DNA from: an uncultured Candidatus Saccharibacteria bacterium
Lineage (GTDB): Bacteria > Patescibacteriota > Minisyncoccia > Phycocordibacterales > Zambryskibacteraceae
Reading direction: 5' to 3'
Assembly: GCA_964342515.1 (NCBI GenBank)
Contig: CAYFFP010000001.1
Span: 25,036-76,203 of the forward strand
Length of the DNA stretch: 51,168 bases
This document shows, piece after piece, positions 4,712 through 50,377 of this stretch. A program made the translations under genes and the position numbers. Numbering within the stretch: position 1 is the stretch's first letter; every line of letters starts with the position of its first letter. The notes below the pieces were generated by a model. The model was given only the letters and a program-made list of their open reading frames with translations. It did not search any database and was not told where the DNA came from.

Positions 4712-5455
4712 ATGAAAAACAGAAATTTCTTATTCATCTTCATTTTTCTAGTCCTATTCTTTTCAAGAGTTAGCGCTGTTGATGCACACAGGTCTGGTTG
4801 TCATAGATGGCATTCCTGTCCTTCAGATAGTGGCTCATATACTTGTGGTGATGCTGGTCATCCCTGTCAGTATCCAACTTATCCAGCCAGTGGTGGAGTT
4901 ATTTATCCGCCGAGTGGATATTACAAAGATTGCTATGACTGCGTGCTGAAGAAAGTTCCCAGCAATGCATATACTTCAGGTATAACTTTTGAATGTAATA
5001 GTGGTTATGTAAAGATTGGTGATTCTTGTTTCAAAATAAATACAGATTCTACATCCAATCCTAATTATCCACCCCCTTCCTCAAAATGCCCCTTAAATTC
5101 ATCCACCTCTTTAACTGATTTAACTAAATGCAGCTGTAACAGTGGTTATACAACAAATTCGACAAAGACTGCTTGCGAATTGATATCTTCTGCTGAACTA
5201 AACAATAAGTCATGCAGTGATAAATATGGAGCTAATAGCAATTGGAATAGCACAATGACCTCTGATGGATTATTAAACTGCGGTTGTATTAGCGGATATG
5301 CATGGAATCAATCTAATACTGCATGTATTTTGCCAACTAACAATATAATATCCTCAAATACTGCTGATTTAGAGAGGACAAATCTTATAGCGGCAATAAT
5401 TGCGCAAATAAATGCACTTCAAGCTCAAATGGATAAATTAAAAAGTGGTATATGA
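4712..5455 (+). CDS. Secreted cysteine-rich repeat protein with C-terminal coiled coil
   Basis: Signal peptide (FLFIFIFLVLFFSRVSA), a His/Cys motif HRSGCHRWHSCPSDSGSYTCGD, three C-x-C-(N/I)SGY-x-C modules, and a C-terminal heptad segment. Confidence 0.55.
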   Translation: MKNRNFLFIFIFLVLFFSRVSAVDAHRSGCHRWHSCPSDSGSYTCGDAGHPCQYPTYPASGGVIYPPSGYYKDCYDCVLKKVPSNAYTSGITFECNSGYVKIGDSCFKINTDSTSNPNYPPPSSKCPLNSSTSLTDLTKCSCNSGYTTNSTKTACELISSAELNNKSCSDKYGANSNWNSTMTSDGLLNCGCISGYAWNQSNTACILPTNNIISSNTADLERTNLIAAIIAQINALQAQMDKLKSGI

Positions 5456-20600: not shown

Positions 20601-21472
20601 GCGAGGCCGTCGGTACTGTGGCCGCGCAGGCCATCGGCGAGCCGGGCACCCAGCTTACCATGCGCACCTTCCACGCCGGAGGCGTGGCGGCCGCCTCGGG
20701 CGACATTACCGCCGGACTGCCGCGCGTGGAGGAAATCTTCGAGAAGAGGAAACCCAAGATTCCGGCTATAGTCAGCCACTTGGACGGGGTCGTGACGGAA
20801 ATCAAAGTGGTTGGTCACGACAGAATTATCGTAGTGGCGCCTGAGGCGGGCGAGGTTAAAGGCAAAAAGTTGGATAATGAATATACAGTACCCGCCTCTC
20901 GTGCCTCGCTCATACATATCGGGCAAGGAGTAAAGAAGGGCGATATCTTGACTGACGGTTCGGCGGACCTTGACGAACTCTTCCGCTACGCCGGCAGAGA
21001 AAAGACGGAGAATTATATTATTCACGAAGTCTCCAAGCTTTACGAGCTTCAAGGCGCCGCCGTCGCCCACAAGCACATCGAGCTTATCGTCCGCCAGATG
21101 TTTAGCAGGAGAAAGATTAAAGATCCGGGTAATTCGAAGTTTACTCGCGGCGATGTCGTTGAAGTTTCGGAATTGACCGAGATTAATAACAAGTTAAAGG
21201 AAAGCGGCGGAGAGGAAGCTAAAAGCGATGTCGCCATTATGGGTATTACCGAAGTCTCGCTGTCGAGGGCGTCATTCCTATCGGCGGCTTCCTTCCAGCA
21301 TACGCCAAGAGTCTTGATCCAAGCCGCCATTAAAGGCGTCAAGGATGAGCTGGTCGGTCTTAAAGAGAATGTCATCATCGGACGGCTGATCCCTGCCGGC
21401 ACGGGCTTTAAGGGAGGATACAAGGAGAAGCTCATATGCGAGGCAATGCTCAAACAGTCAAAGAGCGGCTAG
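14654..21472 (+). CDS. rpoBC: Fused DNA-directed RNA polymerase beta-beta' subunit (single 2272-aa ORF)
   Basis: Beta motifs: GRHGNKGV, RMNLGQILE, GGQRFGEMEVWAL. A linker ...ELEKGKPDNINKN-MISNYRTAPGNK... follows. Beta' motifs: CYCGKYRGVRYKGIVCEKCGVE, NADFDGD, and the G-loop/trigger-loop region. Confidence 0.9.
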   Translation: MQKKYFGRFREPLAKMPNLVVSQVESFKWLIERGLKEVFEEFSSIKDFSEKKFQLDFVGFELAEPKIGEFQAKERKLSYEASLKVRVRLKNHIQKSEKEQEIFMADLPLMTSHGTFIISGIERVIVPQLARSTGVSFTGQEIKGKKTFGAKIIPGRGAWIEMETDFDGTIYVRIDRKRKFPVTTLLRSFGAIGNDKIHALFAPMPQAKLYIDKTLAKDHTISADEAAIEIHRRLRDGDLASAENAREFVKLIFDKERYDLSRVGRFRFNNRFGLKVKGSEIERRTLSLDDLVLIISHIVKLNTTPDALADDIDHLGSRRVRFVGELFQMNIRKGMAQIKRNIQNRMSTIDTDVTLPVQFISPKPLQARIKEFFTTNQLSQFMQQINALEELEHLRTVSALGPGGLNRARAGYEVRDVHPSHYGRLCPIQTPEGPNIGLILRQSCYARVNDFGMIETPYAVVENGKITGEIKYLNALEEESFNIAHAATEVKDDVLVPSVVEVRHKGTPTTVPSSLVNFIDVATNQAFSVATSMIPFLNHDDANRALMGSNMQKQATPCILPEVPLVATGVEETAIRDTGRVLFSPVDGKVDEVDAKLIKVRDNKDKVHEFPLVNFSMTNGFTVHHQRPSVELGAKVKKGSVLADTSSSESGQMAVGQNVLVAFMSWSGANYEDAIIISERLLEKSKFANVHIEEFEVAVRDTKLGPEMTTCDIPNVGESKLKNLAEDGIIRVGAEVRPGDILVGKITPKGESQLTPEERLLRSLFGEKARDVKDTSKRMEGGKRGRVISVQVFSREKGDKLDSGILKRIHIQVAQLRNVSVGDKLAGRHGNKGVISRILPVEDMPYMADGTPIDVLLTPLGVPSRMNLGQILEMHLGLAANALNYQAIVPPFAGASEEEIKEELVKAGIPENGKVKLYDGRTGEPFDQDIAIGCMYILKLHHMVEDKIHMRSIGPYSLITQQPLGGKAQNGGQRFGEMEVWALLGHGAGHTLREMLTIKSDDILGRSAAFDAIVKGDKIPEPNLPASFNVLLNNLRGLSLDIELEKGKPDNINKNMISNYRTAPGNKDFEAISIKLASPERIKEWSYGEVTKPETINYRTQRSERNGLFDEKIFGPDKDFECYCGKYRGVRYKGIVCEKCGVEITRSIVRRERMGHIELASPVAHIWFLKNVPSRISLIMGIPVVDLEKVVYFAGYIITSVEISEKEKVLKDLDSEFKNKIKGLQDEKSKAALKELALATKKDIEALVPGKVLNEVEYHRASLKYPTIFEAGIGAEAVYNILKDTDMHKLKEKLTAELEKAPSTEIPRINKRLSTLQWMINAGTRPEWMFLIRVPVIPPAIRPMVPLDGGRYATSDVNDLYRRVINRNNRLKKLKEINAPDVILRNEKRILQEAVDALIDNTIRHGGASGSQALRRPLKSLSDNLKGKRGLFRQNLLGKRVDYSGRSVIVVGPELKLHQCGLPKHMALELFKPFIISELLKRELAFNIPGAKRLIEDAVPEVWAILEEEISGKYVLLNRAPTLHRLGIQAFQPVLIEGNAIQLHPLVCTAFNADFDGDMMAVHVPLSEEAQAEARLIMAADKNILKPGNGEPIVSPRQDVVLGTYWMTRLKPNAKGEGKYFSSPNSAILAFDFDVVDMRAKVHVLPSETERYKQFDGKVFETTVGRLLFNSVLPKDYPYINREVGRKKMSELIDDLLEKYGIENIPAIIDKIKSFGFRYATYSGITWSLGDVKIPKGKDALIEKGRQQVTQIFNQYQEGLLSESERIVRSVEIWQGVKLEIEKIMPGALETTNPIYDIIHSEARGSFGNLNQMAGMKGIIVDVSGETLEFPITSNYKEGLTPLEYFITTHGSRKGLTDTALNTAKAGYLTRRLFDVAQDEIITEDDCGAKEGILIHKKAASGIEIPLSKNIKGRFLAADLLDNSGQVLFKKWHFITPADAALIDKSAVEAVNVRSPLGCRSTQGLCVKCYGTDLGNNKVVELGEAVGTVAAQAIGEPGTQLTMRTFHAGGVAAASGDITAGLPRVEEIFEKRKPKIPAIVSHLDGVVTEIKVVGHDRIIVVAPEAGEVKGKKLDNEYTVPASRASLIHIGQGVKKGDILTDGSADLDELFRYAGREKTENYIIHEVSKLYELQGAAVAHKHIELIVRQMFSRRKIKDPGNSKFTRGDVVEVSELTEINNKLKESGGEEAKSDVAIMGITEVSLSRASFLSAASFQHTPRVLIQAAIKGVKDELVGLKENVIIGRLIPAGTGFKGGYKEKLICEAMLKQSKSG

Positions 21473-24706: not shown

Positions 24707-26239
24707 ATGCCTGAATTTAAAGCAAAACCAGTAATTTCCAAGTCAGAATTCATGATGTTTTTGAAGCATCCGGCGTGGCTGTGGCTCAAGAAGCACGATA
24801 AAAATAAGCTCCCGGAACCGGACAAGACTCTGCAACTGCGCTTCGACGAGGGCGCACTCTTCGAAAGCTACGCGGAGAAAATTTTCCTTCCGCCAGCTGG
24901 CGGAGCGGTTAAACTTGGATATAAAAAAGATGGGAATGTCTTCTCCGGCACCATGTATTACGCTCTGCCCGAAACGACTCTCGGAGAAATTAAGAAGGAA
25001 ACGAAAGTAATTTTGCAAGGCCGTTTAGAAGTAGAAAATATTACATCCACTTTTGACGTTCTCGAGAGGGTGGGGGAGAAGACCTTTGACCTTTATGAAA
25101 TCAAATCGTCCACTTCCGTAAAGCCAGAGCATATACCAGACCTCGCTTTCCAAACTTTAGTTATCGAAAAATCCGGCTTTAAGGTTCGCGATGCGCATGT
25201 GCTTTATGTAAATAAAGAGTACCTGAGGAAAGGAGAGATAGATCCGTCCGGTATAAGCAAAAAAGAGGATGTGACGGAAAAGGTGCGTGAAGCTATTCCC
25301 GAAACTCTAGAGAATATCGAGAAAGCCTTTAAGGTTCTCTCTGGTCCCATGCCCAACCTGTCACCGCGACATCTGACAGGCGGTGAGATGGGTGAGTGGC
25401 TCGATATCTATCAGGTGATTAATGGCGAATTGCCCCAATATCACATTTACAAACTGGCTGGTCTTAAGCCCGATTTAGTCGAATGGCTTGAAGATAACGG
25501 CATCGAAGCGCTCCATGATGTTCCTCTGGACGAACGATTAAATGAGCGGCAAAGACGTCAGATAGAAGCCATGAAATCCGGCGAACAGAAGATTGATAAG
25601 GAAGAAATAAAAAATTTCTTAGATAAATTGGAGTATCCAATACACTTCTTCGACTATGAGACAGCCATGGGTGTTATTCCAGCCTTCGACGGATACAGGC
25701 CGTATCAACAAATTCCATTCCAATATTCTTTACATATCTTGCCGAGCCAGGGAGCGGAACTAATTCACAAAGAATATCTTCACACGGAGAATTCCGACCC
25801 GGTGCCGGAATTATTGAAGCATATTAAAGAAGATTTTGAGGGTAAAGGCTCCGTTATATCTTGGTTTATGACGTTTGAAAAAGGCAGGAACAGCGAGATG
25901 GCCAAGATGTATCCAGAATACGAAAAAATTCTAAATAATATCAATGATCGGATGGTAGATTTGATGATACCGTTTTCCAAAGGATGGTTCGTGGATAAGG
26001 ACTTCTTCGGCAGGGCTTCTATCAAAGCGGTTTTACCGGTGCTTCTGCCGGAACTAAGCTATAAGGCGCTCGAAATATCCGGCGGGGCGGACGCGCAGAG
26101 GATTTGGATGGAAACGGTGCTGAAGAATCTTAACGCGGAGAAGAAAGAAAAAATTATGGAGGATTTGCGTAAGTACTGCGCTCTTGATACGTACGCGATG
26201 TATGCAATCTATAAATATTTATCGGGAAAAGTCACTTAA
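24707..26239 (+). CDS. DUF2779-family protein (N-terminal PD-(D/E)xK-like nuclease region plus C-terminal DEDD/RNase H-like exonuclease region)
   Basis: DLYEIKSST...; FFDYETAMGVIPAFDGYRPYQQIPFQYSLHIL; WFMTFEKGRN; YCALDTYAMYAIYKYL. Confidence 0.65.
   Translation: MPEFKAKPVISKSEFMMFLKHPAWLWLKKHDKNKLPEPDKTLQLRFDEGALFESYAEKIFLPPAGGAVKLGYKKDGNVFSGTMYYALPETTLGEIKKETKVILQGRLEVENITSTFDVLERVGEKTFDLYEIKSSTSVKPEHIPDLAFQTLVIEKSGFKVRDAHVLYVNKEYLRKGEIDPSGISKKEDVTEKVREAIPETLENIEKAFKVLSGPMPNLSPRHLTGGEMGEWLDIYQVINGELPQYHIYKLAGLKPDLVEWLEDNGIEALHDVPLDERLNERQRRQIEAMKSGEQKIDKEEIKNFLDKLEYPIHFFDYETAMGVIPAFDGYRPYQQIPFQYSLHILPSQGAELIHKEYLHTENSDPVPELLKHIKEDFEGKGSVISWFMTFEKGRNSEMAKMYPEYEKILNNINDRMVDLMIPFSKGWFVDKDFFGRASIKAVLPVLLPELSYKALEISGGADAQRIWMETVLKNLNAEKKEKIMEDLRKYCALDTYAMYAIYKYLSGKVT
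24889..24904. repeat. 16-bp perfect palindrome TCCGCCAGCTGGCGGA (read as PPAGG)
   Basis: Exact self-complementary 16-mer inside the DUF2779 CDS. Confidence 0.95.
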
Positions 26240-31676: not shown

Positions 31677-31750
31677 GCTCCCGTGGTTGAATACGTTAAG
31701 AACTCTGAATTGGTCCAATATAGCACGGGAATTAGAGTTTAGCGGTTTAT
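31677..31750 (-). repeat. Pseudo-tRNA-like repeat, copy 1 (right part only)
   Basis: ~85% identical to 33809..33885. Begins at the stop codon of the amine-oxidase gene. Confidence 0.7.
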
Positions 31751-33048
31751 TAAAAATGTATTATTTGTCTTGCCACTTCTAATCCACTAGCCAGTGCTCC
31801 TTCGACAGTTGCCGTCTCTGTTTCTTTATAAAGAGCTTCACCAGCAAAGAAGATCTTATTTTCAACAGGTTCTCTCAATTTAGCGTATGCTTTCTCTGAA
31901 TTAGCCATACTATAACTATATGCACCTTTGGTAAAAGGGTCGGCTGGCCAGTTTACAACTTGATAAGTTACCACTTTTTCTTTAATAAAGTCTTTATCTG
32001 CTTTCCAGATGTCAGACAACGAAGAAAGACATAGGTTAAAAATCTCTTTCTCGGATTCGTGCTTTAATTTTTCTGCCTCTGGCCCCGCGATCCACCCTGT
32101 CAGAACTGGATATTGTTCTGGGTATTGTGTCCACCACGCATTTACTTTACCGTTGCAAAGCATAAATACCATCTTGTTAATATTTTTATGTTGACTGTTG
32201 CTTGTCCACCATTGGTCCTTAAATTTAATAAGAATTTTAATAACTTGACCGAAACCTATTTTATCAATCGCTTCAATTTTCTCATGAATAGTAGGACTGA
32301 ATTTTATATTTTTAATAATTGGTAAAGCCACGGTAACAATGACTCGTTGTCCATTATATAAATTGCCGTCTGTGCATAATACATTTATAGTATCGTTATC
32401 TATTTTTACAGATTTTACCTCCTTATTAGTTAATAGTTCTACGCTATATTTTTTACATTCTGAAACTAGGAAATTAATCATTGGCCCATATCCCTCTTTT
32501 ATCCTTCCTTGTTTCCATTCAGTTTGCCCAAGCCACTCTTCTTTAAGAGAAAAAGTGCTTATTTTATGGGGATCAGCGGCGTCAAACCCTTTCACCATAT
32601 TATTTATCACATTCACAAGCCTGCTATATTTTTCATCAGAAAAGTATTTTTCTAAGAAGGTTGAAATAGGAATGTCATCTACCAGCTCATTTAATCTTTC
32701 GTTTATTATTTCTCTATATTTTATAAATTCAGGGTCTTCAGTAAATAAATAAGCCTTCTTCAATTCGTTACCATCGAAAGACCACATTTCTCCGTCTTCA
32801 GGCATGGAAACATAATTCAAACCAGCTTCACGAAGTAATGACTTGGTTAATGGTGCCTCTCCGTGAATGAATTCTGCTCCACCTTGCGCCGGATAACCAA
32901 ACTCTTCTTCGTCAAGAGGGAAAATTCTTCCTCCCACCCTATCTATGGCTTCAAGAATTATTACTTTTTTCCCGGCTTTAGCTAGTTCTCTTGCCACCAT
33001 TAAACCTGTTGCCCCAGCACCTATAACTATAATTTCTGCTTTTTCCAT
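31750..33048 (-). CDS. Flavin-containing amine oxidase / NAD(P)/FAD-dependent oxidoreductase
   Basis: IIVIGAGATGLMVARELAKAGKKVIILEAIDRVGGRI dinucleotide-binding motif; C-terminal FFAGEA...ATVEGAL. Confidence 0.8.
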   Translation of the reverse strand: MEKAEIIVIGAGATGLMVARELAKAGKKVIILEAIDRVGGRIFPLDEEEFGYPAQGGAEFIHGEAPLTKSLLREAGLNYVSMPEDGEMWSFDGNELKKAYLFTEDPEFIKYREIINERLNELVDDIPISTFLEKYFSDEKYSRLVNVINNMVKGFDAADPHKISTFSLKEEWLGQTEWKQGRIKEGYGPMINFLVSECKKYSVELLTNKEVKSVKIDNDTINVLCTDGNLYNGQRVIVTVALPIIKNIKFSPTIHEKIEAIDKIGFGQVIKILIKFKDQWWTSNSQHKNINKMVFMLCNGKVNAWWTQYPEQYPVLTGWIAGPEAEKLKHESEKEIFNLCLSSLSDIWKADKDFIKEKVVTYQVVNWPADPFTKGAYSYSMANSEKAYAKLREPVENKIFFAGEALYKETETATVEGALASGLEVARQIIHF

Positions 33049-33722: not shown

Positions 33723-33885
33723 TTAAAAATCAATGAAATATGTTAATAAGTTCTGAACCCTATTTTTGGTTATAAAAATTAGCGGCTTAACGAAGCCATA
33801 TTTTCAGGGCTCCCGTGGTTGGATACGTTAAGAACTCTGAATTGGAAAAATATAGCACGGGAGCTTGAGTTTAGTGGGTTAATAA
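33723..33885 (-). repeat. Composite repeat copy 2: pseudo-tRNA part (33809-33885) plus tRNA-Asn downstream-flank part (33723-33808)
   Basis: The left part aligns with 35532..35618 and the right part with 31677..31750. Begins at the EEP stop codon. Confidence 0.75.
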
Positions 33886-33887
33886 AT

Positions 33888-35531: not shown

Positions 35532-35618
35532 TTAAAAATCAATGAAAATATGTTAATAAGTTCCGAACTCTATTTAGGTTGCAAAGTTTAGTGGCTCAAC
35601 AAAGCCATATTTTCGGGG
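35532..35618 (-). repeat. Repeat copy 3: authentic downstream flank of tRNA-Asn
   Basis: ~85% identical to 33723..33808 and contiguous with the tRNA-Asn 3' end. Confidence 0.75.
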
Positions 35619-35691
35619 CTCCGCGAGCAGGGATCGAACCTGCGACATCCTCGTTAACAGCGAGGCGCTCTGCCGACTGAGCTATCGCGGA
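35619..35691 (-). tRNA. tRNA-Asn (anticodon GTT)
   Basis: Acceptor TCCGCGA/TCGCGGA, D arm GCTC-AGTCGGCA-GAGC, anticodon arm CCTCG-CTGTTAA-CGAGG, T arm GCAGG-TTCGATC-CCTGC. Confidence 0.9.
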
Positions 35692-36125: not shown

Positions 36126-36298
36126 TGGATTTTTACTGGAGACAGAAAGCGAACATGTGGGTTACCGCCTCGGTTCTAGCCGGAGGATTGGTGTCGGCAA
36201 TAATCCTCTTTTTCTTGGCGCGATTGGAGAATCGCCTAGAGGCTAGTTACCTCGCAGAAAGTCCCGCCAATTCATCTCTCGTTTTCCCGCAGGAGTAA
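36125..36298 (+). CDS. 57-aa single-TM small ORF coupled to hpf (TAATG)
   Basis: MDFYWRQKANMWVTASVLAGGLVSAIILFFLARLENRL... Would overlap the convergent def-fmt 3' end by 56 nt. Confidence 0.25.
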   Translation: MDFYWRQKANMWVTASVLAGGLVSAIILFFLARLENRLEASYLAESPANSSLVFPQE

Positions 36299-37463
36299 CT
36301 CTGGTAGGTACAAATTTCCCATCTTCGATTTTGGCATCATTTACTGCGATTCTTAGTTCTTTACCCATTTTATTTTTGAAAAAGAAATAAGCGCCGGGCC
36401 ATCTACTGTAAGCGAGGACCTTTCTTAAATTCTTTTCCGCATCATCATTCAAATCAAGAAGCCCATCCTCCTTCTTCACCAATTTGCAATAAGTAGCTAA
36501 TGAGTCGTCTTGAGGAGTAGGTGTCGGCAAATTCGGGAGGATTTTTGCCAGAAGTCTGCCACCGGCGCGGGCCAATTTCTCTTCCACTTTCGCGTAATGG
36601 TCCGGCCATGGCTCTATAAAAACCTTTTCTTGCGCCAGTATTGGTCCGTGGTCCATTTTCTCGTCCATTTTTATGATAGTGACACCGGGCTGCTTGTTCT
36701 CTAGGATTAAATTTTGAATAGGGGAAGAGCCCCGCAACTCAGGCAACAACGACGGATGCGCGTTAAGAAATCCGCGTCTTGGAATTTCTAAATATTCTTT
36801 AGGCAAGATTTTCCCGAACGACGCGACTATGCCGAAATCAATATCTTTTGGAAATTTGGGGAGGGGTGCTTTCGCGTCGGTAACTTTCAGAACGGGAGAA
36901 AACCCGGCACTTTCCAACTCTTCCAGTACAAATTCCGAGAATTTAGAACCTTGCCTGCCGGCAGGCAGGCTACCGAAGAAGACGAACGAAGCGGCTGGGG
37001 GGAGATTCCTCACATTCTTCGCTTTATCGGTAAAGAGTATGCCGTTTAAGTGGTCTATCTCGTGCTGTATTATCTGGGCAAGGAGGCCGGAGGCGCCAAT
37101 GGTAACCGACTTACCGGCATCGTTATAAGCTTTTATCGTCACTTTCTCATGGCGGAGCACTTCTCCGTAAAGCCATCTTACGGACAGACAGCCCTCCTCC
37201 ATCTTCCTCTTCTTCTTGGAAGTTTTGACGATTTCCGGATTGATGAAGACTAGGTCAGCACTTTCTCTCTTTACCATAAAAATCCGGAGGCTAGCGCCGA
37301 TTTGCGGCGCGGCAATAGCCACCCCGTCCTTTTCGGCATGTAAAGCCCTCTTCATCTTAGCGACAATGTCTCTTATTTTTTTAGAACCAATATCTTCGAG
37401 AGGCACTGCCTCGGCAGTTTGCCTCAAAACTGGACTCTCTTTGTCTACTAATAGTTTCTTCAT
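36243..37463 (-). CDS. def-fmt: Fusion of peptide deformylase (N-terminal) and a shortened methionyl-tRNA formyltransferase (C-terminal)
   Basis: Def motifs GVAIAAPQIG, EGCLSV, QHEIDHLNG. Then the Fmt part: VFFGS..SKFSEFVLEEL, NAHPSLLPELRGSSPIQ, GVTIIKMDEKMDHGPIL. ATGA overlap with the priA stop. Confidence 0.8.
   Translation of the reverse strand: MKKLLVDKESPVLRQTAEAVPLEDIGSKKIRDIVAKMKRALHAEKDGVAIAAPQIGASLRIFMVKRESADLVFINPEIVKTSKKKRKMEEGCLSVRWLYGEVLRHEKVTIKAYNDAGKSVTIGASGLLAQIIQHEIDHLNGILFTDKAKNVRNLPPAASFVFFGSLPAGRQGSKFSEFVLEELESAGFSPVLKVTDAKAPLPKFPKDIDFGIVASFGKILPKEYLEIPRRGFLNAHPSLLPELRGSSPIQNLILENKQPGVTIIKMDEKMDHGPILAQEKVFIEPWPDHYAKVEEKLARAGGRLLAKILPNLPTPTPQDDSLATYCKLVKKEDGLLDLNDDAEKNLRKVLAYSRWPGAYFFFKNKMGKELRIAVNDAKIEDGKFVPTRVTPAGKREMNWRDFLRGN
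36952..36967. repeat. 16-bp perfect palindrome TGCCTGCCGGCAGGCA (read as LPAGRQ in the Fmt N-terminal motif)
   Basis: Exact self-complementary 16-mer inside the FFGS[LPAGRQG]SKF segment. Confidence 0.9.
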
Positions 37464-40243: not shown

Positions 40244-42229
40244 ATGGGAGTTTTTAAGATTAACAACGGATTCAAGCCGGCAGGGGACCAACCCCGAGCA
40301 ATCTCGGGGTTGGTCAAAGGTATTAGGGATGGGCTTCGTCACCAAACTCTTCTCGGTGTCACCGGCTCGGGCAAGACATTTACCGTGGCGAATGTCATAG
40401 CAGAGACAGACAAACCCACTCTCGTCATCGCTCACAACAAAACCTTGGCCGCCCAGCTGGCGCAGGAATACCGCGAATTTTTCCCCGAAAATGCGGTGCA
40501 CTACTTCGTCTCTTATTACGACTACTACCAGCCCGAAGCGTATCTTCCTGTCACCGATACTTATATCGAGAAAGAAGCGATGATCAACGAAGAGATAGAG
40601 CGCCTGCGCCACGCTTCCACCCAAGCGCTCTTGACTCGCAAAGATGTGATTATCGTAGCTTCAGTATCTTGTATCTATGGTTTAGGCGATCCGGCCGAAT
40701 ACGAGAAGGTAAATTTAAAAATAAAAGTCGGAGAGAATGTCTCGCGAGCAGATTTCATCCGAAATCTAATTGATATCCACTATTCCCGCACTAATGCGGA
40801 TTTAAAGCCGGGAACATTTCGCGCACTGGGTAATGTCATTGAGATTATGCCAATCTCGGAGAGAATTATTTACCGAATTGAATTAGATGGAGGGAAAGTT
40901 TTTTCTATCAAGCGCATTGACGCGGTATCGCGCTCGATAATAAATGAAGTAGATGTTTTCTTCCTCTTCCCGGCAAAGCACTTCATAACTGCCGATGATG
41001 CGAACAAGAGGGCTCTCGAGAGCATCAGATCGGAATTGGAAGACCGGTTGGAAGAATTAAAGGAAGGAGGGAAAATTCTTGAAGCTGAACGACTCAAACG
41101 CAGGACCACATACGACCTAGCCATGATCCGCGAAGTTGGTTACACCAACGGCATTGAGAATTACTCAAGACACTTCACGGGTAAAAAAGCCGGTGAAGCG
41201 CCATTTACGCTCCTTGATTATTTCCCCAGTCCGCCAGCCGGCGGATTTCTAACCATTATCGATGAATCTCATGTCACCGTGCCGCAGATAGGAGGAATGT
41301 ACGCGGGCGATAAAAGCCGCAAGGATACTCTTGTTGAACACGGCTTCAGACTGCCTTCCGCGCGCGACAACAGGCCGCTTAAGTTCGAAGAGTTCGAAAA
41401 GAAAATTGGGCAAGTTATCTATACTTCTGCCACGCCGGCGGAATACGAAAGGGAAGTGAGCGGTAAGATAGTAGAACAAGTCATCAGGCCGACGGGATTA
41501 ATTGACCCAGAGGTAATAGTAAAACCCATCGAATCTCAAATCTTGGATTTTATAAAAGAAGCAGAGAAGGCAATAGCAAAAGGCGGGCGAGTGATGGCCA
41601 CCACTCTTACTAAGAAAATGGCCGAAGACCTCTCCGAATTTTTAAAGGAGAAGAAGATTCGCGCGGAATATTTGCATAGTGATATTAAGACTATCGAGCG
41701 CATTGAGATCTTGACCCGGCTTCGCAAAGGTGAATTTGATTGCATTGTTGGAGTCAATCTCTTGAGAGAAGGTCTAGACTTGCCGGAGGTAACTCTTATT
41801 GGGATTCTTGATGCAGATAAAGAAGGATTCTTAAGGTCAGAGACTTCTCTTATACAGATCATCGGCCGCGCCGCGAGAAATATAGATGGCAGAGTCATTC
41901 TCTATGCCGACACTATGACTGGCTCTATGAAAAAAGCGATCGAAGAGACGGAGCGCAGGAGGAAACTCCAGAGTGCATATAACAAAAAGCATGGTATTAC
42001 TCCCAAGACGATTGTCAAAAAGATTAAAGATATCACCGACACTCTGGAACGCGAACATCATCAGGCGGTCAATCTTTTACTGGAAACTGACGAGAAGTTA
42101 TTCAAAAAATCTCCCAAGAAAGTTATTAAAATGAAGATGAAAGAGATGGAAGAAGCGGTCAAGAATTTGGATTTTGAAACCGCCGCCATCCTCCGCGATG
42201 AGATCAAAGCACTAGAAGCACGTCTGTGA
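40244..42229 (+). CDS. uvrB: Excinuclease ABC subunit B
   Basis: GVTGSGKT, DESHVTVPQIGGMY, RLPSARDNRPLKFEEF, and a C-terminal UVR motif (DFETAAILRDEIKALE). Confidence 0.95.
   Translation: MGVFKINNGFKPAGDQPRAISGLVKGIRDGLRHQTLLGVTGSGKTFTVANVIAETDKPTLVIAHNKTLAAQLAQEYREFFPENAVHYFVSYYDYYQPEAYLPVTDTYIEKEAMINEEIERLRHASTQALLTRKDVIIVASVSCIYGLGDPAEYEKVNLKIKVGENVSRADFIRNLIDIHYSRTNADLKPGTFRALGNVIEIMPISERIIYRIELDGGKVFSIKRIDAVSRSIINEVDVFFLFPAKHFITADDANKRALESIRSELEDRLEELKEGGKILEAERLKRRTTYDLAMIREVGYTNGIENYSRHFTGKKAGEAPFTLLDYFPSPPAGGFLTIIDESHVTVPQIGGMYAGDKSRKDTLVEHGFRLPSARDNRPLKFEEFEKKIGQVIYTSATPAEYEREVSGKIVEQVIRPTGLIDPEVIVKPIESQILDFIKEAEKAIAKGGRVMATTLTKKMAEDLSEFLKEKKIRAEYLHSDIKTIERIEILTRLRKGEFDCIVGVNLLREGLDLPEVTLIGILDADKEGFLRSETSLIQIIGRAARNIDGRVILYADTMTGSMKKAIEETERRRKLQSAYNKKHGITPKTIVKKIKDITDTLEREHHQAVNLLLETDEKLFKKSPKKVIKMKMKEMEEAVKNLDFETAAILRDEIKALEARL
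41230..41245. repeat. Palindrome variant TCCGCCAGCCGGCGGA (one central mismatch; read as PPAGG)
   Basis: Inside uvrB at DYFPSPPAGGFLTIIDESH. Confidence 0.9.
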
Positions 42230-42283: not shown

Positions 42284-44809
42284 ATGAATAAAAAAGATGA
42301 TTTGATTATCGTCAAAGGCGCGAGAACACACAACCTTAAGAATATTACGGTTGAGATGCCGCGCAATAAAATAATCGCTATTACCGGCCTCTCCGGTTCG
42401 GGCAAATCCTCTTTGGCCTTCGACACTATCTTCGCCGAGGGTCAGCGCAGATACATTGAGTCGCTCTCTTCTTACGCGCGTCAATTCCTGCGCCAGATGC
42501 AGAAGCCGGATGTCGACGAGATTATCGGACTTTCTCCCGCTATCTCTATAGACCAGAAGTCTCGCTCCAATAATCCTCGCTCAACAGTCGCTACTATTAC
42601 CGAGATCTACGATTATTTGAGAATTTTATACGCTCGCATCGGCCGGCCGCATTGTCTTGTCTGCGGCCATGAGATCAAAAAACTCTCGAATGAAGAAATA
42701 AAAAATTTTATTTTGGAAAAAGCATCAATGTCAAAGGCGGCCTTTGACATATTGTCACCCGTTGTGCGCGGGAGAAAAGGTGAGTATTACCAGCTTCTCT
42801 ACGATCTTCTAGGTAAGGGATATAGCGAGGTAATGGTAGATGGTAAAAAGTATTCTCTCCGCGAACGCATTAACCTTACCAAGACCAAGAAACATGAGAT
42901 ATCGGTATTGGTCGATTCGATCAATCTTGCCGAAGATGACGCGGAAGAAAGACTCTCCGAAGCCATCGAAAGAGCCTTACACGAATCAGACGGCCTGCTT
43001 ATTTTGAAAACTAATCCGCCAGCTGGCGGAGAAGAACATTTGATGTCCGCCAAATGGGCCTGCCCGAGAGACGGCTTCTCTTTCCCCGAAATAGAACCGC
43101 GGCTCTTCTCGTTTAACTCGCCGTACGGGGCATGTCCGGAGTGTAACGGCTTGGGCACCAAGTATCTCTTCGGCTCCGAGCCGTGCGAAAGGTGCCATGG
43201 CAAGAGATTAAGGGAAGAAGCGTTAAATGTCCTTATAGGAGGGAAGAATATTGTTGATTTGACGGCTCTTTCCATCAAAGACGCGGACGAATTCTTCAAA
43301 AAACTCAAACTTACTCAAAGAGAAAAAAGTATTTCAAAAGTAGTGACAAGAGAGATTGAAGCACGACTCGCTTTTATGCTCAATGTCGGCATCGAGTACC
43401 TCTCGCTTGATCGCAGAGCGCACACGCTCTCCGGCGGGGAGGCGCAGCGCATTAGATTGGCTAGCCAGCTTGGATCGGGACTTGTCGGAGCGCTTTATGT
43501 GCTCGATGAGCCAACTATAGGACTGCACGCTCATGATAATGACCGGCTCATCAAAACGCTTCTCAACCTGCGCGACCTAGGCAATACCATTCTCATTGTT
43601 GAGCACGATGAGGAGACCATTTACTCCTCTGACTATCTGGTAGACATCGGTCCGGGCGCGGGTGTGCATGGGGGAGAGGTGGTTATTGCCGGTGACTTAG
43701 ACGAATTGCTTACCGCGCCGAAAAATAAAAATAATTCCTTAACTCTAGCGTATTTGCGCGGCGAGAAGAAGATTGAAGTGCCGGAAGAGAGGCGCGAAGC
43801 GGAGAGAGGAGAGATAAGGATCCGCGGAGGGAAAGTGTTTAATATTAAGCACTTAAATGTCGATGTTCCTCTGCGTCGGCTTATTGCTGTCACTGGAGTA
43901 TCCGGCTCCGGCAAGTCATCTTTCGTCTACGAAATTTTGCACAAGAATCTGCAGGCGCGGCTGGACCGTCGCTACCGGAGCGCGGAGACTCACAACTGCC
44001 AATCATTCGAAGGGACGGAATACTTAGGCAGAACGATACTTATCGACCAGTCTCCCATTGGTCGTACTCCGCGTTCTAACCCCGCCACTTACACCGGTGC
44101 TTTCACTTTCATCCGTGAGTTATTTGCCGAGACGGCGGAGGCGCGGGCCAGAGGTTGGAAGCCGAACAGGTTCTCCTTCAATGTCAAAGGCGGCCGGTGC
44201 GAAACCTGCCAAGGCAACGGCATGATCGAGGTGGAGATGCATTTCCTGCCGACCGTTTACGTGCCGTGTGACGTCTGCGGGGGCAAAAGGTTTATGAAAG
44301 AGACTTTGGAAGTGAAGTATAAGCACAAAAATATTTTTCAGGTGCTTGAGATGACGACAGAAGAAGCACTGGAATTCTTTGAGGATATCCCGGCGATTTA
44401 TGACCGGCTCAAGACCATGAATGATGTGGGTCTTGGCTACTTGGCGCTTGGCCAGTCCGCCACGACGCTCTCCGGCGGGGAAGCGCAGAGAGTAAAGATT
44501 GCTTCGGAACTCTATCGCCCGCATTTGGAGAAAACGATTTATCTACTAGATGAGCCGACAATAGGACTTCATTACGAAGATGTGAAAAAATTGATTGAGA
44601 TTCTCCAAAAACTCGTCGATAAAGGCAATACGGCAATGGTCATCGAACATAATATGGATTTCATCAAATCCTGTGATTACATCCTCGACATCGGTCCCGA
44701 TGGCGGAGATGGTGGAGGCGAACTGGTGGCTAAAGGCACTCCGGAAGAAGTAGCGGGCACAGATACGCATACGGGGAAGTATTTAAGAAAAACTCTCAGA
44801 AAGAAATGA
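42284..44809 (+). CDS. uvrA: Excinuclease ABC subunit A (841 aa, apparently lacking the insertion domain)
   Basis: Two ABC modules ([18 protein letters not shown]; LSGGEAQR twice) and Zn modules. Only 9 residues separate CPECNGLG from CERCHGKRL. Confidence 0.95.
43015..43030. repeat. 16-bp perfect palindrome TCCGCCAGCTGGCGGA (read as PPAGG)
   Basis: Inside uvrA at [11 protein letters not shown]. The 21-nt context is identical to the uvrC copy. Confidence 0.95.
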
Positions 44810-46068
44810 AAATAAATCATTTGCCGGATGGGCCGGGAGTTTACTTTTTCCTTAAATCCACCTCACCCAGCCCTCTCCTAGGCAAGGAGAGGGCAAAAGA
44901 AAAAGACCCCCTTCTCCTTACGTCTAGGAGAAGGGGTGGGGATGAGGTGCTGTATATCGGCAAAGCCACATCTCTCTGCGATAGGGTAAAAAGTTATTTC
45001 TCGAAAGATATATTTCTCTCGCGCGGACCGAGGATTGTAAAGATGCTTGAGGAGGCGGATAGAGTTGATTTTGTTCAGACTGATTCGGTGCTGGAGGCGC
45101 TGATTCTTGAGGCCAATGAAATCAAGAAGCATCAGCCGATTTATAACGCGAAAGAAAAAGATGATAAAAGTTATCTTTATGTCGCTATTACTAAGGAGAA
45201 GTTTCCTAAAGTAATTGTCACGCGTGGTTCAGGAGACTATGGACCCTTCCCACACAGCGGGGAACTGAAAGAAGCTTTAAAGATTGTCAGAAAGATTTTT
45301 CCCTTCCGCGATGATAAATGCAAATTAATTAACAAGCCCTGTTTCAATGCCCAAATCGGTCTCTGTCCCGGGCCGTGCGCGGGCTGGATTTCTAAGGCCG
45401 ATTACAGGAAACAAATCAGGAATATAAAATTATTTTTCGAAGGCAAGAAAGATACTCTTATAAAAACTCTTGAGAAAGAGATGAAAGTCTTTGCGAAAAC
45501 GCAGGAATTTGAGAGGGCTGGTGAAATAAAGAAGAAAATTTTTGCCCTCGATCATATTCAAGATATTGCTTTGATTAAAAAAGATTTAGAGGGAAGTTCT
45601 CAAGAAGGTTTTCGTATAGAAGCTTATGACATTGCTCATATCTCCGGCACCAATGTTGTCGGGGTAGTGACTGTCGTCGAAGATGGAGAGCTGAACAAAA
45701 GCCAATACAGGAAATTCAAAATAAGAGCGGATAATCCGCCAGCTGGCGGAGACGATACCAAGAACCTCAAGGAGATTATTTCCAGACGCTTAGGTCATCC
45801 GGAGTGGAAGTTCCCGAATCTTATTGTCGTCGATGGCGGCAAAGGGCAGATTAATGCCGCGAGAAAGGTTTTAGAAGAATCCGGACTAGAAATGATAGAT
45901 GTGGTCTCTGTGGTCAAGGATGAAAGACATAGGCCCAGAGAGATTCTAGGCACTGTGCAAATGCAAAGTCCGACTTTGCACAAATCTATTCTTCTGGCTA
46001 ACTCAGAAGCCCATCGCTTCGCTATCGGTTATCACAGACGACTGCGCGGCAAAGGATTTAGGATATAA
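44806..46068 (+). CDS. uvrC: Excinuclease ABC subunit C, minimised (420 aa; no C-terminal (HhH)2 region)
   Basis: GIY-YIG (GPGVYFF ... VLYIGKATSLCDRVKSYF), UVR motif (EFERAGEIKKKIFAL), RNase H-like domain (IEAYDIAHISGTN ... HRFAIGYHRRLR). ATGA overlap with uvrA. Confidence 0.9.
   Translation: MKINHLPDGPGVYFFLKSTSPSPLLGKERAKEKDPLLLTSRRRGGDEVLYIGKATSLCDRVKSYFSKDIFLSRGPRIVKMLEEADRVDFVQTDSVLEALILEANEIKKHQPIYNAKEKDDKSYLYVAITKEKFPKVIVTRGSGDYGPFPHSGELKEALKIVRKIFPFRDDKCKLINKPCFNAQIGLCPGPCAGWISKADYRKQIRNIKLFFEGKKDTLIKTLEKEMKVFAKTQEFERAGEIKKKIFALDHIQDIALIKKDLEGSSQEGFRIEAYDIAHISGTNVVGVVTVVEDGELNKSQYRKFKIRADNPPAGGDDTKNLKEIISRRLGHPEWKFPNLIVVDGGKGQINAARKVLEESGLEMIDVVSVVKDERHRPREILGTVQMQSPTLHKSILLANSEAHRFAIGYHRRLRGKGFRI
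44859..44949. repeat. ~91-nt in-frame palindromic element (outer stem plus two hairpins) inside the uvrC GIY-YIG domain
   Basis: Hairpin 1: GCCCTCTCCT-AGGCA-AGGAGAGGGC (44870-44894). Hairpin 2: CCCCTTCTCCT-TACGTCT-AGGAGAAGGGG (44908-44936). Outer stem: CACCTCACCC / GGGgaTGAGGTG. Confidence 0.85.
45735..45750. repeat. 16-bp perfect palindrome TCCGCCAGCTGGCGGA (read as PPAGG)
   Basis: Inside uvrC at RADNPPAGGDDTK. Confidence 0.95.
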
Positions 46069-47031: not shown

Positions 47032-47412
47032 ATGACGCAGATGTCGCTCGGTCTTGGAATCGCAAGTCCTCAACCAATCCTTTTCCCCGTGGGTCGAAGG
47101 ATCATGGCTGGAGTGAGAGAACTCGAGAACATGGTCGGTCCGGACTGGCGAGATCGCATTAAGAAAAAACATCCAATCGCCAGCTTCAATCAGTGTGTCA
47201 TCTGCCAAGTTTCCGGCGGTGACTATGAGGACGGTTGTCGGATGCTGGGGATTAACCCCAAGAGCAAGGAACCAGCGATGCTTGGATTCAATGTGGTGGA
47301 TATCAAAAGTCTCCACGTGGACAGGGAGTTCGAAGCTCTGACGCGCGGCTGGGAGGTCGTCATTAAGAACCCATCAATCAGGAGTATCAAGCACCTGCGC
47401 ATTGCCGCCTAG
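47032..47412 (+). CDS. GC-rich orphan hypothetical protein
   Basis: Followed by the intrinsic terminator at 47417. An alternative antisense ORF exists, so the call is uncertain. Confidence 0.4.
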   Translation: MTQMSLGLGIASPQPILFPVGRRIMAGVRELENMVGPDWRDRIKKKHPIASFNQCVICQVSGGDYEDGCRMLGINPKSKEPAMLGFNVVDIKSLHVDREFEALTRGWEVVIKNPSIRSIKHLRIAA

Positions 47413-47416
47413 CGGC

Positions 47417-47452
47417 AGCCCGTCCCGCTTCAGCGGGACGGGCTGAAATTTT
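47417..47452 (+). terminator. Intrinsic terminator
   Basis: AGCCCGTCCCGC-TTCA-GCGGGACGGGCT followed by GAAATTTTAT. Confidence 0.65.
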
Positions 47453-47489
47453 ATAACAAAAAACGGGGTGCCAGAATTTCTGGCACCCC
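47453..47489 (-). terminator. Intrinsic terminator of the minus-strand KGG operon
   Basis: GGGGTGCCAG-n5-CTGGCACCCC, followed on the minus strand by GTTTTTTGTTAT. Confidence 0.65.
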
Positions 47490-48272: not shown

Positions 48273-49370
48273 CTATATCAAGTTTTCAAATGTCATAATT
48301 TTCATCTCCGACTCCAAATCATCCGATGACAATGAGCGAAGATACACTTGAGTCATTCTTATATCTTTATGACCAAGAAGTCTTGAGATTTTTATCAGAC
48401 TGACTCCTTTTTCGGCGAGGTTTACAGCAAAGGTGTGACGAAATCTATGCAAATGGAATTTCACTCCAGATAGTCTTTCTAATCTCTTAACCCAATGCTT
48501 CAGTCCTTCAGCACTTATTCCTTTGTCGGTATTTAGAGAAACAAATAATTGCGGGGTTTTATAACTTTTCCTCTGGTCTAAATAATCTTGCAAAGCCATT
48601 GCTAATAATATATTAGTAATCGGCAAAATTCGATCACGTCCTGATTTTGATGTTTCGCCCCTAACTGTCAATTTCCTTTTTTCCAAGTTGATATCGGTCA
48701 CTTTCAAGCCAAGTAATTCGCTCTTTCGAATCCCACAAAACAGAAGCACAGCGAGCATTGCTCGATCCCTTTTTCTCTGCAACAAGGTGGTTGAATGGTT
48801 TTCAATAGCTGTCCTGATATGCTCGATATCCCCTTTACGCAAGGCCCTTTTGTCATCATAGGTTGGTTTGAATTTAGGCAGTTTTTTTATTGGATTTTCA
48901 ATAATATGTTTCTCTTGAACCAGCCACTCAAAAAACACATTCAACTTCATGGCATATGTCGCTACAGTCGAAAACTTAACGCCAGTTTTCTCAATTCCTT
49001 TTCCGACAATTCTAGTCCGAGTTTGCATTTCCTTGAAAAAATTAGTCAACGATTCCGTAGTCAGTAAATCGATTGTGACGTAAGAGAGTTTCCTGAAAAG
49101 ATCATACGACGCTTTATACCCAATTAAAGTGGCGGGGCGAAGTAGCGTTACATATTTCTTTTCCTCTATAAACTTATTGAAGAGTTCGTCTAGTTTGTCT
49201 GGAGTGGACATCTCTCTTGTTTTGCCGGTTTCCTTATCGGAACGCCCTAAAGACAAAGGACCAAGCGTTTTTCTGCATTCTTCTGGGGTTACGCCGTATG
49301 ATTCCATCACCGAGACTTCGTCGTACACAAACAATGAAATTGTATTGTGCTCCATGGTTAATGTATTCAT
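48273..49370 (-). CDS. Tyrosine recombinase / phage-type integrase
   Basis: C-terminal catalytic region GIRKSELLGL..., HRFRHTFAVNLAEKGVSL, LLGHKDIRMTQVYL. Confidence 0.85.
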   Translation of the reverse strand: MNTLTMEHNTISLFVYDEVSVMESYGVTPEECRKTLGPLSLGRSDKETGKTREMSTPDKLDELFNKFIEEKKYVTLLRPATLIGYKASYDLFRKLSYVTIDLLTTESLTNFFKEMQTRTRIVGKGIEKTGVKFSTVATYAMKLNVFFEWLVQEKHIIENPIKKLPKFKPTYDDKRALRKGDIEHIRTAIENHSTTLLQRKRDRAMLAVLLFCGIRKSELLGLKVTDINLEKRKLTVRGETSKSGRDRILPITNILLAMALQDYLDQRKSYKTPQLFVSLNTDKGISAEGLKHWVKRLERLSGVKFHLHRFRHTFAVNLAEKGVSLIKISRLLGHKDIRMTQVYLRSLSSDDLESEMKIMTFENLI

Positions 49371-50377
49371 ACCTTCTTACTAGACGGTAAGACTACCTGC
49401 TCAGTTCCTATTCTTTTTACTTGAGGATTCCCATTAAGATAATTTTGAAGATAAGCCACGAAACCTTGAATATCTCTGATCATAAACGGGCGATGGAAGT
49501 TATCAAGACTTGTTAATGGATGCTTATCTAACGAGTCCATTAACTCAACAATTTTTTCTGAAACAAGTTTAACTGCGTTCGCCGGTTCTTTTACTCTTTC
49601 ATTTTCATCCAGAACAATTCTGTTTATTCTGTTTGAAGCTTCAACCGACGAAAGTCCTTCATAATTTTGTTTGAGTAATTTCTCGGCATTATATGTTTCC
49701 CCATATCTATCTGCTCTTCGTAAAGCTTTGGCTAATTCAGAAACTATGTCCCTGGGAATAGTTTTTTGTTCAACAATTAGTTTTCTAAAGCCTCGTCTGT
49801 ATTTTTCTGGAGCTTCCTTGACTAATGGAACTTTTGCCTTGGAAAATTCAGGATCATTTAACGCTTCTTTCATTTCTTTAGTTTCTCCCAAGAGAGCCAG
49901 GTACTCCGAGATGGTACTTTCCGGCATACCAAGAAGTTTGTGGAGTTCTCTTACGCCGGGCTGACCATGCCGGAACCCACCATGGCCTTTCTTGACTTCT
50001 GCCGCCGAACTCAAGATTTTTTTCCTTATTTTATCTAGCATCATCGCCGTATCTAAGGGAGACATCTTTTCTTGGTGAATATTCTCTATCGCCTGTCGGA
50101 TGAATCTATCATCATCACTAATATCAAGGATTCTAACTGGGACTACTTTTAATCCGGCAATCTTCGCGGCTCTCCACCTACGTTCTCCGGTAATGATTAC
50201 AAAGTTCTTATCTATCTCGATGGGATAGATGATTCCGGCAGTAACAATGCTTTGGGCTAATTCTTTTAAATTCTCTTCGTTTCTAGATTGGCGTGGCTGA
50301 TTTGTATCTGCTTTTATTTTGTCTATTTCAACTTCAGTGATTTTCATGATATTTCTTAGTAAATTGAGTAAAGTCAT
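49367..50377 (-). CDS. ParB/Srx N-terminal-domain protein
   Basis: PRQSRNEENLKELAQSI...IITGERRWRAAKIAGL. 4-nt overlap with the integrase gene. Confidence 0.7.
   Translation of the reverse strand: MTLLNLLRNIMKITEVEIDKIKADTNQPRQSRNEENLKELAQSIVTAGIIYPIEIDKNFVIITGERRWRAAKIAGLKVVPVRILDISDDDRFIRQAIENIHQEKMSPLDTAMMLDKIRKKILSSAAEVKKGHGGFRHGQPGVRELHKLLGMPESTISEYLALLGETKEMKEALNDPEFSKAKVPLVKEAPEKYRRGFRKLIVEQKTIPRDIVSELAKALRRADRYGETYNAEKLLKQNYEGLSSVEASNRINRIVLDENERVKEPANAVKLVSEKIVELMDSLDKHPLTSLDNFHRPFMIRDIQGFVAYLQNYLNGNPQVKRIGTEQVVLPSSKKV

Follow-up and report, generated by a model that had tools for sequence, protein, structure and literature searches.

Locus and genomic setting

The stretch of DNA analysed here (the window) comprises 51,168 nucleotides of contig CAYFFP010000001.1 from a patescibacterial genome. 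Its uvrC gene, which encodes a conserved repair nuclease, carries a palindromic segment of 91 nt at positions 44859-44949, and this segment is the subject of the present report. It is compared below with BoxC, a known repeat family of Escherichia coli (56 bp, ~32 copies; Cozzuto et al. 2008, PMC2267715).

Upstream of uvrC lie uvrB (40244-42229) and uvrA (42284-44809), and the stop of uvrA overlaps the start of uvrC; this overlap is absent in several relatives. The uvrC product gave Pfam matches to UvrC_RNaseH_dom (6.9e-36) and to the UVR motif, and its N- and C-domains were both covered by PDB matches. No Pfam call was obtained for the GIY-YIG domain of the window UvrC, because the insert splits this domain. 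In the PDB alignment, Thermotoga maritima UvrC aligns to the window protein from residue 47-48 onward only. All invariant residues of the UvrC alignment are retained. Of 8000 UvrC homologues, the best ranked belong to Zambryskibacteria and Parcubacteria, and those that carry names are assigned to Candidatus Zambryskibacteria, Parcubacteria and Patescibacteria. The C-terminal HhH domain of canonical UvrC is absent from the window protein and from all close homologues (~380-430 amino acids (aa)), which end after the RNase H-like domain.

The features of the gene and of the element are as follows.

44806-46068, plus strand: uvrC open reading frame (ORF), 420 aa, with a split GIY-YIG N-domain, a UVR motif and an RNase H-like domain (ORF list, Pfam, PDB)
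44859-44949, plus strand: complete element, read as an inverted doublet of BoxC-like units (fold, covariance model R1, module alignment with five other phyla)
44859-44868, plus strand: outer left arm CACCTCACCC, equivalent to the CCTCACCC head of the left BoxC-like unit
44870-44894, plus strand: hairpin A, GCCCTCTCCT-AGGCA-AGGAGAGGGC, perfect 10-bp stem, the hairpin of the left unit
44895-44906, plus strand: A-rich spacer AAAAGAAAAAGA, separating the two units
44908-44936, plus strand: hairpin B, CCCCTTCTCCT-TACGTCT-AGGAGAAGGGG, perfect 11-bp stem, the right, inverted unit (CTTCTCC variant)
44938-44949, plus strand: outer right arm GGGGATGAGGTG with one bulged A, the last codons of which, GAG GTG (E V), coincide with the native E-I/V of the YIG strand

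Structure of the element

A first reading of this DNA from its letters alone (the sequence-only reading) had described the arms and hairpins and predicted a three-way junction. Direct checking in the window returned the same coordinates and sequences, and an RNA fold of 44850-44955 gave exactly that structure, an outer stem around two perfect hairpins, at -56.6 kcal/mol. Dinucleotide-shuffled controls (n = 200) reached -33.4 ± 3.7 kcal/mol (z = -6.3), and none of the 200 was as good. The arms CACCTCACCC and GGGGATGAGGTG form terminal inverted repeats. Read in frame, 44859-44949 encodes (S)TSPSPLLGKERAKEKDPLLLTSRRRGGDEV.

Each half of the element shows the pattern of a BoxC-like unit, CCTCACCC-nn-CCCTCTCC-loop-GGAGAGGG. 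The layout of the doublet, with its modules in brackets, is (CCTCACCC)-nn-(CCCTCTCC loop GGAGAGGG)-spacer-(CCCTTCTCC loop GGAGAAGGG)-n-(GGGGATGAGG). The motif of the left arm is also present in published E. coli BoxC sequences and in the copies of other phyla. Across copies the element measures 57-110 nt.

The uvrC loop in orthologues

The loop between GVY-F and LYIGKA was delimited in 117 of the 120 best homologues. A short ancestral turn is present in 90 of these 117, and in the remaining 27 an insertion lengthens exactly this loop by up to ~30 residues. The native turn measures 4-6 residues in most orthologues, including the closest one (P0002, 75% identical), in which the empty site reads GVYFFKKGKEILYVGKA. 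Compared with P0002, the window insert amounts to ~27 codons between GVYFFL and EVLYIGKA. The ORF and this alignment bear out the earlier claim of an in-frame insertion between the GIY and YIG strands.

Eight of the 27 loop insertions are of the (S)TSP...GG(E/D)V type. For six Zambryskibacteria-like lineages with a loop of the TSP...GGEV type the DNA was compared. In all six the outer arms ACCTCACCC(C) and (G)GGGTGAGGT are alike, with identical codons, and the flanking codons differ synonymously. The hairpin CCCTCTCCT...AGGAGAGGG is likewise common to all six. The second small hairpin varies by lineage in identity and place: CTCGC-GGGCG-GCGAG stands on the 3' side and GGCC-TTC-GGCC on the 5' side, and the window has the CTTCTCC hairpin. 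The element is also read in differing frames among lineages (PSPRSRRG vs PLLGKER).

Other kinds of insertion were seen at this site. Unrelated hairpin-forming insertions occupy the same GIY/YIG loop in L137 / L165 / L167, in L149 and in L009 / L134. An AT-rich type, AAGATTCG-AGA-CGAATCTT, pairs into the native ILY codons, and another type, GAAGCC...GGCTTC, encodes APLRQGFAGQ. The loop of P0003 holds a different three-way junction, which scored weakly (21 bits) with the BoxC-like model.

Two candidates were set aside. Hidden out-of-frame insertions were considered for P0016 and P0042, the proteins of which start just past the site; one case was a start-codon choice and the other a scaffold gap. 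In L008 a bAvd-like gene and a reverse transcriptase, a typical diversity-generating retroelement pair, lie at 530-1881, directly upstream of an element-bearing uvrC. This pair was found beside uvrC in L008 and at no other locus; the adjacency is probably a coincidence, and a link with diversity-generating retroelements was rejected.

Copies in other genes and other phyla

The L006 contig carries, in addition to its uvrC copy, a copy in uvrB (ACCTCTTCCCGCCTTCGGCACCCCTCTCCTAGATCTAGGAGAGGGGATGGGGATGAGGTG). This uvrB copy is 87% identical to the uvrC copy of the same contig, is read in the same frame, and forms a clean 22-aa insertion relative to the window UvrB. In Ca. Gottesmanbacteria a copy in nadB (L-aspartate oxidase) accounts for 27 residues where solved structures have 4. 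A copy in dus (dihydrouridine synthase) of Ca. Nomurabacteria is in frame; it was not accepted as a clean insertion, since the gap in the PDB alignment is 4 residues only and the boundaries were not set. Further copies lie inside long stop-free stretches that, to judge from their translations, encode a putative TilS (Dehalococcoidia) and a putative DNA methyltransferase (Ignavibacteriaceae).

A hairpin-only pattern, CCCTCTCCT N0-8 RGGAGAGGG, was scanned over one genome per species and matched at least 120 loci in many phyla. Among the matches listed, ACCTCACC or GGTGAGGT occurs within 70 nt in ~30 cases (29 listed), against an estimated chance of ~0.5% per locus. Strongly folding CCTCACC...GG(A)TGAGG intervals among the matches listed were counted as composite elements, of which there are 45. 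They include copies in Enterobacteriaceae, Pseudomonas, Polaromonas, Alphaproteobacteria, Mycobacterium, Akkermansia, several cyanobacteria and Bacteroidota, and also in Ignavibacteria, Armatimonadota, Acidobacteriota, Chloroflexota/Dehalococcoidia, Melainabacteria and Ca. Nomurabacteria. In other phyla the copies mostly lie in intergenic or intercistronic DNA, and they often nearly fill the short spacers of co-directional genes.

An intergenic copy on a Pseudanabaena plasmid, found by BLAST against plasmids, has the module order of the window element. Its spacer GAAAAGAAAAAG stands at the place of the window spacer, followed by a second hairpin CCCCTTCTCC/GGAGAAGGGG and the right arm GGGGGATGAGG. 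The right-hand hairpin CCCCTTCTCC/GGAGAAGGGG is shared by the Pseudanabaena, Acidobacteriota, Anaerolineae and Spirulina copies. Homologues of almost full length, with the same modules and the bulged A, are present in Acidobacteriota, Anaerolineae, Spirulina and Desulfobulbaceae. In the copy from E. coli the module order alone agrees, and the right arm is GGGTGAGG.

A covariance model, R1, was built from a seed of 10 copies from Proteobacteria, Cyanobacteria, Acidobacteriota and Chloroflexota, with none from candidate phyla. It matched the window over the full length of the element at 44859-44949, with 49.3 bits on the plus strand (E ~3e-8, a rough calibration) and 37.3 bits on the minus strand. 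In a sensitive search with filters off, the next-best match in the window reached 10.8 bits (E 2.7), which confirms that the window holds no second copy. A weak R1 match at 2243-2327 of L004 proved to be native ddl coding sequence and was discarded. The right arm GGGGATGAGG with its extra A is found in six of the ten seed copies and in the uvrB copy of L006; the bulged A is a conserved feature of the family. RNAalifold on the seed alignment favours a single long hairpin, in which the left unit pairs with the right unit, over the three-way junction, and the doublet can adopt both forms.

The published BoxC members (supplementary family file of PMC2267715) read CCCCTCACCCTAACCCTCTCCCCAAAGGGGCGAGGGGAC, and member eco:9, TTTTCCCCTCACCCTAACCCTCTCCCCAGAGGGGCGAGGGGACCGTATTGTG, is the K-12 copy located immediately before fabI. 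Because the published members, including the fabI copy, match it, each half of the window element is regarded as a BoxC-like unit. The Enterobacteriaceae version is present in all 5426 of 5426 complete E. coli genomes, which have it at a median of 16 places each. When 10 published E. coli BoxC sequences were combined into an nhmmer profile, its best window match was at 44861-44893.

The sequence-only reading had likened the segment to in-frame palindromic insertions of the Rickettsia RPE type. This comparison stands: the segment belongs to a dispersed BoxC-like family that is also found in frame in other candidate-phyla genes.

Consequences for protein and RNA

An AlphaFold run on UvrC with 70 homologues placed strands at residues 11-18 and 46-54 (pLDDT ~76-91) and modelled residues 19-45 between them as coil (pLDDT ~47-54). 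According to this model the insert lengthens the tip of the GIY/YIG beta-hairpin and leaves the nuclease fold intact. The insert would be tolerated because only a floppy surface loop grows longer.

Stem pairs were counted over eight candidate-phyla copies in the two helices that these share. Pairing reaches 94% in these helices, with 14 of 22 pairs invariant and double-sided changes in 2 of 22. Because 14 of the 22 pairs never vary, what is conserved appears to be the sequence itself rather than pairing. A repeat family with a fixed consensus fits these sequences better than an RNA selected for its shape alone. Rfam gave no match at gathering score; matches to miRNA and ctRNA models, at chance level, appeared only at E <= 10. 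The suggestion that the segment might be an embedded structured RNA or a recombination site gained no specific support.

Interpretation

Under the best explanation, to which a probability of about 0.75 is given, a permissive surface loop of UvrC hosts a BoxC-like doublet. The doublet would be a small palindromic repeat of a dispersed and probably selfish kind, and ribosomes would read through it to give a disordered peptide. Both the outer stem and the hairpins belong to the repeat itself and were not evolved by uvrC. A copy of the repeat would have landed, or recombined, in the turn between the GIY and YIG strands. Its length would by chance have been a multiple of three and free of stops, and a probably disordered loop of ~27 residues would have resulted. 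In-frame survival of this kind is likely because the arms, being pyrimidine-only or purine-only, hold almost no stop triplets. Selection at the protein level would merely filter the sites at which insertions survive; because it would act only as a filter for permissive sites, many different insertions are expected at this loop in related lineages, as is seen. The element is presumably mobile and selfish, now or formerly. The insert is probably translated, to judge from the reading frame, and is presumably neutral or nearly so for UvrC.

Several observations weigh against this explanation. The 51-kb window holds a single copy of the element. When R1 was run on ~334 kb of loci from candidate phyla, all chosen around uvrC except the dus locus L053, copies were confined to uvrC, uvrB and dus. 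Neither a target-site duplication nor a cognate transposase or RAYT-like gene came to light for the element. The element is ~8-10 nt longer than the net insertion, and native codons are included in its right end, GAGGTG (E V). This overlap could point to a locally templated origin or a homology-guided mechanism; it could also reflect microhomology at insertion, a selection filter or chance. The E. coli BoxC profile matches the window only weakly (E = 0.015), and for this reason the link with E. coli BoxC leans mainly on the shared architecture and on the chain of intermediate copies. Finally, in a neighbour-joining tree of UvrC built with the loop removed, the TSP...GGEV type occupies at least five separate places, each beside relatives without an insertion. 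Such scatter calls for repeated insertion at the same site, recombination between lineages, or many precise losses. A single ancestral insertion was rejected on the ground that this type is not monophyletic in the tree, which is star-like and poorly resolved and makes the result suggestive only.

No consistent direct repeat was found beside the intergenic copies, and the filled and empty sites in uvrC and uvrB are too diverged for a clean comparison. No Y1 transposase was present among the 12 window ORFs scanned with Pfam, and no insertion sequence related to the element was seen. A literature search on the sequence strings of the element and on palindromic in-frame insertions in Patescibacteria returned nothing relevant.

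It is quite unlikely that the three-way junction acts in cis, as a structure of RNA or single-stranded DNA, and was selected here to control uvrC. Such a structure could slow ribosomes ~50 nt into the ORF, serve as an RNase III target, or lower UvrC relative to the overlapping uvrA. Its stability is indeed very high, its position is close to the 5' end of an ORF that overlaps the uvrA stop, and its stems are perfect in six orthologous lineages despite the synonymous differences in flanking codons. In the L008 variant a U-G wobble maintains the pairing, on the sense strand only; the top and base of the hairpin show a few compensatory changes; and further perfect hairpins are built into conserved uvrB codons. 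Yet the element is also found in unrelated genes and in intergenic DNA across phyla and is absent from the closest orthologues, and several relatives lack the overlap of uvrC with uvrA. The high share of invariant pairs indicates that sequence rather than pairing is conserved, and no Rfam family matches. Little credence is likewise given to an adaptive protein loop, in which an extended, basic and Gly-rich loop would aid contacts with DNA or UvrB, palindromy being raw material. The recurrence of insertions at exactly this loop in 27 of 117 orthologues, many of them rich in R, K and G (ARRRGGKHGKR, GPPKRGRK), speaks for it, as does the shortness of these UvrC proteins, which lack the C-terminal HhH DNA-binding domain. 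The amino-acid sequences are nevertheless diverse, the same DNA element is read as PSPRSRRG or PLLGKER according to frame, the loop is modelled as low-confidence coil, and a turn of 4-6 residues suffices in most orthologues, the closest included.

Much less probable still is a local origin, in which native uvrC sequence would have given rise to the palindromes through template switching or fold-back synthesis (quasi-palindrome perfecting). The right arm overlaps the native E-V codons and the left arm could be its copy; perfect 13-bp hairpins occur in conserved uvrB codons without any insertion, at places that differ by lineage; and the AT-rich hairpin insertion of other orthologues likewise pairs with native ILY codons. 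Against this, the whole 91 nt, including hairpins, spacer and bulged arm, is homologous to copies in other phyla, with E ~3e-8 from a model that contains no candidate-phyla sequence, and a second copy with 87% identity lies in the uvrB of a relative. For the window element a local template-switch origin is largely refuted. An artefact of assembly or amplification, for example a chimeric inverted repeat, had to be considered, as multiple displacement amplification or misassembly can generate palindromes. It is refuted: the identical UvrC protein is encoded by three contigs of different assemblies, for which reason the segment is not an assembly artefact, and homologous in-frame insertions are present in the uvrC loop of orthologues from other samples and studies.

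A wider proposal goes beyond the BoxC-like repeat in a permissive loop and is, as a whole, rather doubtful. BoxC-like doublets may be pan-bacterial tiny elements, ranging from E. coli to the candidate phyla radiation, with a near-invariant head and hairpins kept by a conserved trans-acting machinery (a mobilising enzyme or a host factor). They may persist in permissive ORF loops of the gene-dense candidate-phyla genomes, perhaps with a preference for genes of nucleotide excision repair (NER) or some functional interplay with them. A preference for NER genes is conceivable because BoxC-like copies lie in uvrB and uvrC and because a second palindrome, described in the next section, lies in uvrA, uvrB and uvrC of the window. 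Sequence constancy of this degree in a non-coding element would call for a conserved recognition partner.

The case matters in several respects. It is a clean example outside Rickettsia in which a conserved repair nuclease has well-bounded, selfish-looking palindromic DNA running through its catalytic domain, and it bears on the origin of new protein loops. It bears also on annotation, as the split GIY-YIG domain escapes Pfam. A 30-year-old orphan repeat of E. coli is tied to copies in at least 10 phyla, including Patescibacteria, with the same head, hairpin and bulged arm. The family accounts for low-complexity peptides (TSP..PSP..GEG/RRG..GEV) found repeatedly in predicted proteins and in spurious ORFs.

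Other palindromes and neighbouring features

A second, unrelated palindrome of 16 nt, TCCGCCAGCTGGCGGA, is always read in frame as PPAGG. Its copies in the window are as follows.

24889-24904: perfect, DUF2779 ORF
41230-41245: one mismatch, uvrB (degenerate)
43015-43030: perfect, uvrA
45735-45750: perfect, uvrC

By chance, 0.06 matches would be expected. Compared with T. maritima UvrC, the uvrC copy inserts 4 residues. Of the four copies, three lie in uvrABC, which makes up 11% of the window (p ~0.005, calculated post hoc). The palindrome is also present in Ca. Gottesmanbacteria (L101, two copies) and in the uvrC loci L146 and L168.

At 40286-40315 the uvrB gene of the window contains a perfect 13-bp hairpin, GACCAACCCCGAG-CAAT-CTCGGGGTTGGTC, within the conserved codons DQPRAISGLV and without any insertion. 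A different perfect 13-bp hairpin lies in uvrB of L005 (~5205-5240), in the codons EQGLRHQTLL and again without an insertion. These cases suggest that the coding sequences of these genomes tend generally toward perfect palindromes. A small hairpin, CCCTCACCCTAT...GGGGTG, is located ~30 nt upstream of the uvrA start in L006 (7420-7455), L142 (3385-3420), L144 (3420-3450) and L146 (2395-2430). It shares the BoxC head CCTCACCC; a leader element and a solo head are both possible readings.

Elsewhere in the window, a 2272-aa ORF at 14654-21472 (plus strand) with Rpb2 and Rpb1 domains is an rpoB-rpoC fusion, and a 406-aa ORF at 36243-37463 (minus strand) is a peptide deformylase fused to a methionyl-tRNA formyltransferase. 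At 31677-31754 / 33809-33886 and at 33736-33813 / 35546-35622 there are direct repeats, with lengths of 78 nt (87% identical), 50 nt and 30 nt. Spaced ~1.8-2.1 kb apart, they lie in AT-rich DNA that extends up to a tRNA gene (35619-35691), and are possibly the ends of a repeated module or attachment sites. Two strong GC-rich hairpins at 47416-47489 follow the ORF 47032-47412, which has no Pfam family. Next, at 48273-50377, come a tyrosine integrase gene (48273-49370) and a neighbour that has a ParB_N domain according to the L001 annotation. The hairpins and the integrase region look like the edge of an integrated element.

Comparison with known systems

BoxC was reportedly first described by Bergler et al. 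in 1992. We know of no established function or mode of spread for it in E. coli. Judged by its sequence, the window element consists of two BoxC-like units in inverted arrangement, a design that can be compared with a REPIN. It has in common with BoxC the head CCTCACCC, followed after 2-3 nt by the CCCTCTCC(C) hairpin with GG(A/C)GAGGG, and the multi-copy nature of the family. Inverted doublets occur in E. coli as well, where they are closed by GGGTGAGGGG (L175). BoxC has been described as intergenic and enterobacterial, whereas the window copy lies in a member of the Patescibacteria, in frame within the loop of an essential domain; it also uses the end variant ACCTCACC/GGTGAGGT and a CTTCTCC second hairpin.

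REPINs are doublets of REP sequences that form hairpins (Bertels and Rainey 2011, PMC3116915). Like REPINs, REPs and BIMEs, the element consists of an inverted pair of short palindromic units that can form one long hairpin or a junction, and its family is dispersed, GC-rich and mostly intergenic or intercistronic. A head tetranucleotide GTAG or CGTC is the signature of the REP superfamily (PMC3733652). The window units differ in that they start with (A/C)CCTCACC and have ends without GTAG or CGTC, and no linked RAYT gene was noted among the 12 window ORFs scanned with Pfam. REP sequences are species-specific, whereas the BoxC-like sequence is conserved across phyla.

Small terminal-repeat elements of the MITE type (miniature inverted-repeat transposable elements) offer a further comparison; fusions of small repeats or MITEs with ORFs are reviewed in PMC3184786, those of Coxiella are treated in PMC5896051, and a review of MITEs is given in PMC10969869. 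Shared features are terminal inverted repeats, a strong RNA fold, no coding capacity of their own and an occasional in-frame fusion with a host ORF. In contrast to MITEs, neither a target-site duplication nor a cognate insertion sequence was found for the window element, and a length of 57-110 nt is at or below the usual size of MITEs. The small dispersed repeats (SDRs) of heterocystous cyanobacteria, reportedly described by Elhai et al. in 2008, are very small palindromic units that nest in one another and in larger repeats. Rivularia copies of the present family (L050, L107) are similarly nested in larger inverted repeats, a likeness by description only.

RPEs, in the account of Ogata et al. 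2000 as cited in PMC3184786, are palindromic, lie in frame within protein genes of Rickettsia, measure 105-146 bp and are known there from Rickettsia only. The likeness to the window element is one of effect and not of sequence comparison: an in-frame palindromic repeat adds a peptide and the protein survives. In-frame copies were found in uvrC and in uvrB and nadB of relatives, with empty sites in orthologues. The window element differs in being shorter, in belonging to a cross-phylum family and in residing in a Patescibacterium. The feature is of a known kind, BoxC-like and REPIN-like in sequence and design and RPE-like in effect; what is unexpected is the reach of the BoxC family.

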